Assembly (NCBI GenBank): GCA_951406725.2
Contig: OX597826.1
Span: 44,206,001 to 44,270,000, forward strand
DNA from: Octopus vulgaris
Lineage: Eukaryota
DNA: 64,000 nt
Direction: 5' to 3'
Shown: positions 8,579 to 57,732 of the stretch, piece by piece
Layout of the letters: each line of letters opens with the position of its first letter
Position numbering within the stretch: position 1 is the first letter of the stretch
Made by a program: the position numbers and the translations under genes
Notes under the pieces: model-generated
Databases searched by the model: none
Seen by the model: the letters and a program-made list of their open reading frames with translations, nothing else
What the model was told of the DNA's origin: nothing

Positions 8579-9254
8579 GCATACATGCATATATTATGTA
8601 CATGCACACACACACACTAGCAATTCTCCAAGACGTTGCCCGGGTGTTATGACCTACACCACCAGAATCGGCACACGAGGTGTATGAAGCAAATATGATG
8701 TTATTTGCTTCATATGATCAATCAAATTTTTGAAGGTGATACCACATCATGGCGACAGTCGAAATATTAAATCCACTAAAATATTGTTTAAAGACTTTAT
8801 GGGTTAAAATGCCTGTACATTACCAGGAGCGTAGTGTAAATTATAAGCAGTGATCATTTTGAAGAATGATAATTCTCGGTGGTGAATTCAAACAAAAATT
8901 TACGTAAGTAATTGGTATTTATTTCAATATAGACCGCGAAAAATTGCTATTTGGAAGAACTAAGGATACACAATATCTGAATTCATGGTATTTTAAGATA
9001 AATATATCACTAGATAGCTAAGTACAGAGAGAGACAGAGAGAGTACGAAGATAGACAAATCAGTGAGGAATTTGGTAGGATGTTCGAAGTAGTGTTAGAA
9101 ATTGTCTCAATCTGGAAAGCTCAGAAATCTTAGCAAAATTACTGGAGCTCTGTAATCGACGCACCTCTCTCCCCCCTCTCTCTCTCTATATATATATACA
9201 TATACATATATATACATATATATGTATATATAGGTGAGAAAGTTGGTGTGTGAT

Positions 9255-12369: not shown

Positions 12370-12430
12370 GATTGTAAATAAAACATGAAAATCTGTGAGT
12401 AGTAATTATTCTATACACAACGGCACACAC

Positions 12431-12494
<64 letters not shown>

Positions 12495-12540
12495 GTGAGA
12501 AAGTGAGAAAGTTGGTGTGTGAAAGCACGTGGTTGAATAT

Positions 12541-12814
12541 ATAGAAAATAGTAAAAAGTGAAAAAACTGAAGGCTTGTTTTAAAAGAAAAAACATATATT
12601 TGAGTCATTATCTCTGAAGAATGTTATAAATTTTTTCATACAATGACATAGTTTTTGAAGAAATTTGAAAAGCTGAACGCGAAACCGGTCATTTCTTCAC
12701 AAATTATGTCATTGTATGAAAAAATTTATAACATTCTTCAGATATAATGACTCAAATATATTTTTTTAACCTTTTTAAAACAAGCCTTCTGTAGTTTTTT
12801 CACTTTTTACTATT

Positions 12815-12820
<6 letters not shown>
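12541..12820. mobile_element. Hairpin element: ~120-bp inverted arms closing a hammerhead core
   Basis: 12541-12664 pairs with 12691-12820 with few mismatches or indels; flanked by (TA)n. Confidence 0.85.
12657..12698 (+). ncRNA. Minimal type I hammerhead ribozyme, U3:A8 variant (predicted)
   Basis: Stem I GAAGAAAT/ATTTCTTC; core TTGAAAA; stem II GC-TGAAC-GC; GAAA; palindromic ACCGGT; GTC cleavage triplet. Confidence 0.7.
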
Positions 12821-12873
<53 letters not shown>

Positions 12874-13066
12874 TTTAACAGCTGAATTTAGAGAAGAGAG
12901 CAGAATATAAGAAGGCATAGCTCAAGAAATACTTGATCTGACTGCAGCCGACTGTAATTTCCATGATGATCTAGTATGTCACATTTCACATGTGCCCAAC
13001 AAGAAGACTTCGAGAGCACAGTGTAGAAACAAACATACTCTGCCTTTGTGCTCCAAAAGATATATA

Positions 13067-13788
13067 CAGGGGTTGGATAAAATAATGGAAACACCTAGCA
13101 TCATTGCATCATAAGTTTCAAATAAGTATAAAACCGTAAAAAGCTTGTTTATTTTATGATTTATTTTATGATTTTTGTATACGTGTGGATACAGCCAAAA
13201 GAAGTATCTGACGCTGACTGCCTTCTTCCAAATGTTAAACATGGAGGAGGATCTGTGATGATCTGGCGAGGGTGGAGGGCTATATCCTGGAAATACGCCG
13301 GCCCAATAGTTTCCCTTCATGGCAGAATTAATAGTCAAGACTATTTAAGCATTTTATCTGATCAAATTCATTCTATGGTTGCGAAACTCGGTTTCGGAGA
13401 GAATCGCAATCTTTCAGGATGCCATACGAGCACCAACAATTTGACTAATTCACACAGCTTCACACAGCTGAAGTTGATACTGAATGGCACGGGGAACATT
13501 CTGGTGAAGTTGAACATCTTATTTGGCCACCACAGACCCCCAGATCTGAATATTAGTGAACATTTGTGGTGCATTTTAGAAAAAAAAAGTAACTTGTCGA
13601 TATCCTCCACCATCATGACAACAAGAACTGGGGACTGATTTAGCTGAAGAATGGACAAAAATTCATTTGGAAACAATTCAAAGTCCATACCTCATAGAAT
13701 TTAAGCTGTAATTACTACGAAAGGCAGTGCTACCCTATATTAAAATAAATTTGAAATTTTAAGGTGTTTCCATTATTTTGTCCAGTCC

Positions 13789-13791
<3 letters not shown>
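13067..13791 (+). mobile_element. Tc1-family DNA transposon, internally deleted
   Basis: ~30-bp TIRs (CAGGGGTTGGATAAAATAATGGAAACACCT / AGGTGTTTCCATTATTTTGTCCAGTCCCTG) flanked by TA. Confidence 0.92.
13183..13720 (+). pseudogene. Tc1 transposase catalytic-domain fragment, frameshifted
   Basis: Peptides PNVKHGGGSVMIW, GPIVSLHGRINSQDYLSIL, IFQD and PDLNISEHLW match the Tc1 motifs KHGGGSVMVW and SPDLNPIENLW. Confidence 0.88.
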
Positions 13792-13827
<36 letters not shown>

Positions 13828-54523: not shown

Positions 54524-54531
<8 letters not shown>

Positions 54532-54915
54532 ATATTTCGGAATGGTCATATTGCCAGTTTAGCCAATAAACACACACGCACTATATATTTGGTGTTATTT
54601 TGCTTCAGTGATATTTATTTTTTACATTAATCTTAATCTTATTTCGGCCAAAGTTCTTTCGTCACACTCCTGTGACCGCATCAGTGGTCCTTTGTTTTCT
54701 TCTCACTTACTTGTGTCTCTCCTTACAAGTAAGTGAGAAGAAAACAAAGGACCACTGATGCGGTCACAGGAGTGTGACGAAAGAACCTTGGCCGAAACAA
54801 GATTAAGACCAATGCAAAAAATAAACATCACTGAAGCAAAACAACACCAAACACATAGTGCGTGTGTTTTTATTGGCTAAACTGGCAATATGACCATTCC
54901 GAAATATAACAATAT
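54524..54915. mobile_element. Near-perfect 392-bp hairpin element (191-bp arms, 10-nt loop) with hammerhead-like motif
   Basis: 54524-54714 pairs with 54725-54915; inner 62 bp perfect; motif CCA CTGATGCG GTCACA GGAG TGTGAC GAAA GAAC (C/T)T TGG. Confidence 0.9.
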
Positions 54916-57073: not shown

Positions 57074-57403
57074 AGACCCCCTTCGGTCATGAATGACCAT
57101 GGGATTGCACCTAGAAAGTTATCTTCCTAGATACAAGTCCGGGCAAGGTTGTTTATGGAAGGCCAGCAGTCGCCCATGCATACCAGCCTCCCCTCTCCAC
57201 GCCACCAGTGTTATCCAAGGGAAAGACAAAGGTCGATACAGCTTGGAACCAGTGACGTCGCAACTCATTTCTACAGCTGAGTGAACTGGAGCAACGTGAA
57301 ATAAAGTGTTTTGCTCAAGAACACAATACGCAGCCCGGACCGGGATTCGAGCTCACAACCTCACGATCGTAAGCTCGACGCTCTAACCACTGAGCCATGC
57401 GCC

Positions 57404-57406
<3 letters not shown>
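57074..57406 (-). mobile_element. CORE-type SINE family A, full length
   Basis: tRNA-Arg(ACG)-like head GGCGCATGGCTCAGTGGTTAGAGCGTCGAGCTTACGATCG..., CORE-like domain and tail. Confidence 0.9.
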
Positions 57407-57458
<52 letters not shown>

Positions 57459-57517
57459 TGTATACATGTATATATACATATGTCTATATATATATACATA
57501 CATACGTACATACATAC

Positions 57518-57732
57518 GTGAAGGCACATGCCTCAATGGTTAGAACGTTGAGCTTACGATTGTGAGGTTGTGAGTTCGAATCCCGGACCGGACTGCGTGT
57601 TGTGTTCTTGAGGAAGACACTTCATTTCATGTTGCTCCAGTTCACTCAGCTGTTGAAATGAGCTACGGCGTCACAGGTACCAAGCTGTATCAGTCTTTGC
57701 TTTTCCCTTGGGTAACACTGGTGGCGTGGAGA
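57518..57732 (+). mobile_element. CORE-type SINE family A, 3'-truncated, head-to-head with the previous copy
   Basis: GTGAAGGCACATGCCTCAATGGTTAGAACG...GAGTTCGAATCCCGGACCGG...TGTTCTTGAGGAAGACACTT. Confidence 0.88.

Follow-up and report, generated by a model that had tools for sequence, protein, structure and literature searches.

A long hairpin with a minimal hammerhead motif in its loop, read as an insertion of a Penelope-like element in Octopus vulgaris

The hairpin and its surroundings

The window, a stretch of 64,000 nt from the Octopus vulgaris genome (contig OX597826.1, in an assembly of 2.8 Gb), is AT-rich and rich in microsatellites. Between two (TA)n tracts it holds a long hairpin, the parts of which are collected in Table 1. 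The arms, aligned over 12536-12664 and 12691-12825, were nearly perfectly complementary, with two 3-nt indels and a few mismatches. When 12541-12820 was folded, a single rod of -148.8 kcal/mol was obtained (z = -25.4), and an equal stability was found in 0 of 200 shuffles. A preliminary description of this DNA had taken 12541-12820 as the extent of the feature. The rod does fold within these limits; however, the left part of the insertion was thereby left out, namely the 36-nt tail at about 12493-12537, as were both (TA)n flanks.

Table 1. Parts of the hairpin insertion and its flanks (positions within the window; signed positions are relative to the predicted cut site)
Feature	Position	Strand	Basis
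(TA)n microsatellite, left flank, likely target site	12434..12491	.	nearly all relatives among the matches listed terminate in (TA)n
Optional tail of the Penelope-like element (about 36 nt + 8-nt duplication), inverted arm only	about 12493..12537	-	44-nt match to L029
3' end of the element, inverted and 5'-truncated	12538..12664	-	arm comparison; L001 = +1..+166, overlap 7 nt
Junction microhomology AAGAAAT (native stem I 5' strand and inverted-arm end)	12658..12664	+	linear copies
Minimal type I hammerhead core, U3:A8	12665..12690	+	descriptor match, folding, 323 exact core copies in genome
2-bp stem II of the core	12672-12673/12679-12680	+	descriptor match
Palindromic ACCGGT in stem III position	12684-12689	+	descriptor match; predicted cut after C12690
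Direct copy of the 3' part of the pLTR, without tail, entering (TA)n	12691..12825	+	L001 = -33..+133
(TA)n microsatellite, right flank	12818..12871	.	repeat scan

The tail in the window matched, at 100% identity across 44 nt, the end plus tail of a natural copy elsewhere (L029). The 5' end of the inverted arm is the first base past the predicted cut site, or lies at most 7 nt short of it, the overlap masking the exact point. The direct arm shared 75-83% identity with both pLTRs and with the inverted pLTR of a near-full-length copy (L082) of a Penelope-like element (PLE). In the window copy itself, the parentage, the head-to-head layout of the arms, the tail on one arm and the 7-nt overlap at the junction are direct observations.

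Several other repeats were seen in the window. A 26-nt exact piece of the PLE tail alone lies within a TA repeat at 9228-9253 and is the shortest insertion scar of the family in the window. Adjoining the hairpin, 13059-13798 is occupied by a decayed element that retains 37-nt terminal inverted repeats (92%) and a disrupted frame resembling a transposase, which we take, from its motifs, to be Tc1/mariner-like. A second near-perfect hairpin, with 191-nt arms (95%) and a 10-nt loop, stands beside a TA repeat at 54524-54915. It belongs to a different repeat family, which was found too in L031, L118, L227, and L038; the hammerhead descriptor gave no match on it, and it is either a MITE or another PLE end. 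At 57194-57732, two opposite copies of what reads as a tRNA-like SINE (213 nt, 88%) surround a TA repeat, and a third copy lies at 1709-1923.

The hammerhead motif and its predicted behaviour

The 26-nt loop at 12665-12690 is a hammerhead core exactly as the preliminary description had written it, with the order U3 U4 G5 A6 A7 A8 A9, GC-UGAAC-GC, G12 A13 A14 A15.1, CCGG, and U16.1 C17. A type I hammerhead descriptor matched this loop and nothing else on both strands of the 64-kb window, and the core pattern was satisfied by 15 of 2,000,000 loop shuffles. The features that define a minimal type I PLE hammerhead are present: a Watson-Crick pair between positions 3 and 8, G12 A13 A14, U16.1-H17, and stems I and II. 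So is a short palindromic stem III (ACCGGT), for which an intermolecular duplex is predicted. No Rfam family reached its gathering score in the window; among the 40 Rfam matches at E<=10 in 12400-13000 there was no hammerhead model, and what did match were miRNA models, hit as generic hairpins far below the gathering score. The identification as a U3:A8 minimal type I hammerhead stands. The U3-A8 form has been published for PLEs (PMC4209133), where this variant is given for about 1,300 Schistosoma PLE motifs.

With the minimal type I hammerheads of metazoan PLEs described in PMC4209133, among them the U3-A8 variant of Schistosoma Cercyon, the motif has in common U3-A8, G10.1-C11.1, and a palindromic 15.2-16.2 with loop 3. 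Moreover, it shares their location in the pLTR and their occurrence mostly as single or opposite-strand copies; pairs of PLE hammerheads on opposite strands, 100-700 bp apart, are described in the same source. In the Schistosoma families, stem II has 7-8 bp with a bulge, whereas the window stem II has 2 bp and no extra 5' unpaired base. Unlike those hammerheads, the window copy has an artificially extended stem I.

In the fold predictions, the A15.1-U16.1 pair had a probability of 9e-6 in the monomer, while two strands together were predicted to pair through ACCGGU over 6 bp, both stems II being formed as well, at -58.9 kcal/mol versus 2 x -25.8 kcal/mol. The need for dimerisation through ACCGGU, which the preliminary description had suggested, is borne out by these predicted folds. 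According to PMC4209133, minimal hammerheads show low activity as dimers and none as monomers, and the same is stated in PMC6765202, citing Lunse et al. The hammerhead of the window is likely to cleave weakly and in a dimer-dependent manner. In a linear stretch of 85 nt, stem I had a predicted probability close to 0, but it was forced within the hairpin; stem II had a predicted probability of 0.59. If transcribed, the window copy could thus outperform the parent element in cleavage, the rod locking stem I. In sister subfamilies (L082, L085, L094, and others), A1.1 is missing or position 17 is A, and one subfamily has a GT/AC stem II with a 4-nt loop; these variants are natural material for comparing cleavage.

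The parent element and the origin of the rod

When the hairpin was used as a genome query, 84 matches were obtained from the 40 scored of 1,761 candidates, and they fell into two classes, whole hairpins and copies with the loop and right arm only. The 35-nt core had 323 exact copies in the genome, and its reversed control had 0. In the linear copies, the 7-nt stem I strand again stands directly upstream of the core; the shared sequence beyond it is not complementary to the right arm, and the native stem I is 7 bp. The shared upstream sequence ran for 28 to 1,227 nt at 15 of 15 loci and reached GIY-YIG and RT-thumb frames. A protein search of the genome gave 15,079 candidate places; 150 of them were scored, and the open frames in these reached 851 aa. 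The near-full-length copy L082 is arranged as (TA)n, an inverted tailed pLTR, a direct pLTR with hammerhead and tail, an 850-aa frame, a 3' pLTR with hammerhead and without tail, and (TA)n. Its frame matched RVT_1 (E=9.9e-8; 32.4 bits, above the cut-off of 29.6), and a GIY-YIG match in L032 (E=8e-4; 20.1 bits) lay below the cut-off of 22.6. The L082 frame contains a DKG motif, a CX4CXXC linker at residue 711, and a GIY-YIG-like motif with an internal CXXC. The Atlas neighbours of its protein at 0.98 were GIY-YIG/RVT_1 proteins, and a PDB sequence search with the frame gave 0 matches. Furthermore, pLTRs in both direct and inverted orientation were found in L082 and L083, and 5' truncations formed a continuum across 101 arms. 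Since the linear copies run into RT/GIY-YIG frames and L082 has this layout, these domains and these motifs, the parent is, as far as its sequence tells, an EN+ PLE, Neptune/Nematis-like as judged by the linker. RT and GIY-YIG are found in the parent element and are absent from the window copy itself.

The parent resembles EN+ PLEs of the Neptune/Nematis type, as characterised in PMC8557442 and PMC3846280, in the order of RT and then GIY-YIG, a CX2-5CXXC linker, pLTRs, an inverted 5'-truncated 5' partner, a tail of 30-40 nt at one end, and microsatellite targeting. Unlike them, the window copy is without a coding part, and the coding region of near-full-length copies is apparently in two overlapping frames. 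The Poseidon element PAc of Anolis is likewise described in PMC11167929 with a tail between two RT start sites, AT-rich targets, and a pLTR hammerhead; PAc has C3-G8 and a frame that begins inside the ribozyme, whereas here U3:A8 is found and the first ATG lies past the tail. The octopus repeat annotation of PMC13282606 includes Penelope-like families, and hammerheads go unmentioned in that annotation. In the near-full-length copies L086 and L092 (also L082, L083, and L085), a separate upstream frame of 320-490 aa was seen in addition to the RT-EN frame, and in L086 and L092 the two frames, which are in different phases, overlap by ~170 nt. This could reflect an intron or a frameshift. The PLE class is normally described with a single frame.

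Head-to-head junctions were collected from 140 fetched loci, a non-random set of which 40 were taken by hairpin similarity, 70 by exact core, and 30 by protein. There were 78 junction rows, and 70 distinct junctions were left after 8 duplicates had been removed. Measured from the predicted cut site, the arm starts were spread between +118 and -1814. An overlap of 1-9 nt was seen at most junctions, and the hairpins carried zero, one or two cores. The tail layout was tail/no-tail in 55 junctions, tail/tail in 3, and none/none in 1, with an internal arm in the other 11; a tail was thus present on exactly one arm in 55 of the 59 pairs with both outer ends. Two of the three tail/tail pairs were the 5' pair of a near-full-length element, the far end of which is tail-less. 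Arm divergence was 2.2% within pairs versus 4.2% between pairs (45 pairs), which points to one source per insertion. The tailed arm was the longer one in 24 of the 55 pairs and the tail-less arm in 31, so neither of the two can have served as the template in every case. The window junction, +1/-33, has a 7-nt overlap that equals the self-complementarity of stem I. Exactly this junction was found in 3 of the 70 (window, L002, and L017); since the tail layout is different in each, they arose separately. Because partners join at every distance from the motif, with zero, one or two cores, the rod is, on the evidence of these copies, an ordinary inverted-pLTR structure and not part of the ribozyme design.

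The preliminary description had read the whole rod as the extended stem I of an active hammerhead, meant to nick the hairpin into a long dsRNA with defined ends, and had held that simple inverted insertion does not explain it. Neither claim was supported: the native stem I has 7 bp, partners join at any distance from the motif, and head-to-head pairs are routine, even the exact junction recurring. Such a purpose-built device is very improbable, although the core is intact, stem I is locked by the rod and the predicted dimer lies 7 kcal/mol below two monomers. Against it stand, besides the short native stem, the sibling hairpins with no core or two in the loop, the recurrence of the junction (3/70 junctions, and 2/32 rows of a genome-wide pattern search), the lack of excess loop conservation after insertion, and the failure to identify any coding or promoter context. 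Slightly less probable still is a DNA transposon of the MITE or fold-back kind, inserted at TA and bearing terminal inverted repeats, the loop of which would resemble a hammerhead by chance. Long inverted arms, TA flanks, and hundreds of relatives would suit such an element; however, the arms derive from the 3' end of an RT/GIY-YIG element and show a continuous range of 5' truncations, the tail makes the ends asymmetric, and the core pattern arose in just the 15 loop shuffles given above. The linear copies, being continuous with the RT frame, refute this reading. Instead of fixed symmetric repeats, the junctions spread over 1.9 kb, and many copies have a single arm. An equally improbable reading, a non-autonomous retrozyme-like unit that spreads itself via circular RNA, has in its favour that an origin of non-LTR retrozymes from PLE pLTRs has been reported (bioRxiv 10.64898/2026.07.22.740005) and that a ~460-nt tandem unit in L202 starts at the cut site, but retrozymes are head-to-tail tandems with a core per unit, whereas the window holds one head-to-head pair, and the core is lost from the L202 unit.

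We read the window locus, with a rough probability of 0.93, as a non-coding PLE insertion in which two 5'-truncated 3' ends lie head to head in (TA)n and the minimal hammerhead motif that forms the loop comes from the element itself, with weak dimer cleavage predicted. This arrangement is ordinary and has already been described for PLEs, the literature on which includes U3-A8 minimal hammerheads, a palindromic stem III, inverted pLTRs, and tails. Inverted pLTRs that are tailed on one side appear in PMC8557442 and PMC3846280.

As for its formation, PMC11167929 describes a PLE protein that cuts and extends both strands, with two RT start sites bounding the tail, and self-priming is invoked for palindromic junctions in PMC3846280. 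We propose that the element endonuclease would open a TA repeat, that both DNA ends would prime reverse transcription at the element's two start sites, one giving a tail and the other none, and that both cDNA products would stop early and then be joined via short microhomology. In the window copy, one product would have halted at the cut site and its AAGAAAT end would have paired with the other product's stem I strand; one core would thereby have remained as the loop, with the long rod as a by-product. Alternatively, a single cDNA may have folded back via stem I, which would give an identical sequence for the window copy. We infer the joining mechanism from genome copies only, and twin priming and fold-back are indistinguishable for the window copy. 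That every pair stems from fold-back alone was rejected, given the pairs in which the tail-less arm is longer (31/55). In the active element, the ribozyme likely processes a tandem precursor RNA.

Conservation of the core and arm ends at the predicted cut site

Conservation was followed in arms located, independently of the core, through an anchor that lies 50-68 nt downstream of the cut site (the first 100 listed of 694 matches; 101 distinct contexts). Among these listed arms, departures from the commonest letter of a column made up 8 of 863 cells in the core (0.93%) versus 240 of 3,984 in the arm (6.0%). When variants limited to at most two arms were counted, the rates were 0.93% in the core and 1.03% in the arm (p = 1.0). 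Shared variants, counted by eye in the listed arms, were found at 0 of 12 core positions versus 20 of 69 flanking ones (p = 0.03, approximate because the subfamilies are related). Since no core variant is shared but the rates of rare variants are alike, the core has been preserved in source lineages and has decayed neutrally once inserted. The preliminary description had proposed weighing its device against loop and arm conservation across copies, and half of this outcome went against it, the loop being no better kept than the arms after insertion. Moreover, A1.1 was missing in 19 of 80 listed arms, by which the first stem I pair is broken, and position 17 was variable (U 7, A 7, and G 2 among the 16 full-length rows of the cut-site pattern search). 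Both count against a strict requirement.

The ends of the arms were then compared along the element. In the 101-arm sample, among the matches listed, 8 of the 85 arms at risk ended at +3..+1, or 3.1% per base, 3 of the 8 being one locus. Elsewhere in the same listed arms, the rate was 0.15-0.5% in most stretches, 1.3% at +13..+9, and 1.6% at -29..-36. Genome-wide, 398 arms were exact to +1, and the 32 departing rows were classed by eye as 16 truncated arms (13 loci) and 16 point variants. At a control site, likewise AAAT-ended, truncations made up 2 of 50 rows among 630 arms (by eye). The comparison of 13 loci in 398 with 2 in 630 gave a Fisher p of 1.7e-4, the control being blind to junctions followed by T; matched for this blindness, the counts were 7 versus 2 (p = 0.03), and for ends into (TA)n only, 4 versus 0 (p = 0.02). 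Both end patterns detect only rows with A or T at a fixed distal base, and the control is a single site, closer to the priming end. Another control pattern, to which we give no weight because it had a single working mismatch filter and no denominator, gave 8 truncations in 18 rows. At a GAAGAAT look-alike site, 6 of 8 rows were truncations, and 2 of these fell on the analogous end.

In L016, L202, L231, and L238, both arms or tandem units terminated at +1. A tandem repeat of ~460 nt was seen at L202:1050-2300, with a unit that runs from the predicted cut site via the tail into the coding start and back to the cut site; it resembles copying around a circular or re-used RNA. At L238:1000-1750 lies a perfect head-to-head pair, both arms of which halt at the cut site and are followed by an identical ~115 nt of non-element sequence, apparently a truncated copy re-mobilised together with its flank. 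The tail status of the 15 arms ending at +1 was mixed (7 tailed and 8 tail-less), which gives no support to run-off at the cut site being confined to tail-primed strands.

The excess at the cut site is possibly a footprint of in vivo cleavage, for which the genomic evidence is only suggestive. A stronger proposal is that the genome records in vivo ribozyme cutting, with about 3-5% of arms stopping right after C17 by run-off of the reverse transcriptase, and that the window hairpin is such a product caught by stem I annealing. We regard this as tentative, with the odds somewhat against it; the same ends may instead be due to AT-rich microhomology or to pausing of the RT at structure, both of them live alternatives. 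Arm ends being in excess at the cut site, the position of the window junction may not be pure chance. For PAc, the RNA-seq data discussed in PMC11167929 have no ends at the cut site, whereas here DNA copies pile up there modestly; hammerhead cleavage was dispensable in vitro in that work, and PMC8557442, where it takes up hammerhead function in EN+ PLEs, calls it unclear. Among the papers listed by a full-text literature search, no title or abstract dealt with an arm-end footprint at the cut site. Further motifs, possibly including the type of this family, are catalogued in the supplements of PMC4209133.

The window locus itself carries little weight, as it is one among hundreds of dead insertions of a known class. 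If transcribed, such hairpins may feed small-RNA silencing or A-to-I editing. The family, in the meantime, is a convenient test bed for the role of the hammerhead in EN+ PLEs. If cut-site run-off is true, the genome would provide evidence as to whether PLE hammerheads are at work in transposition, and if the excess holds genome-wide and shifts with subfamily sequence, junctions would be a cheap readout of in vivo cleavage.
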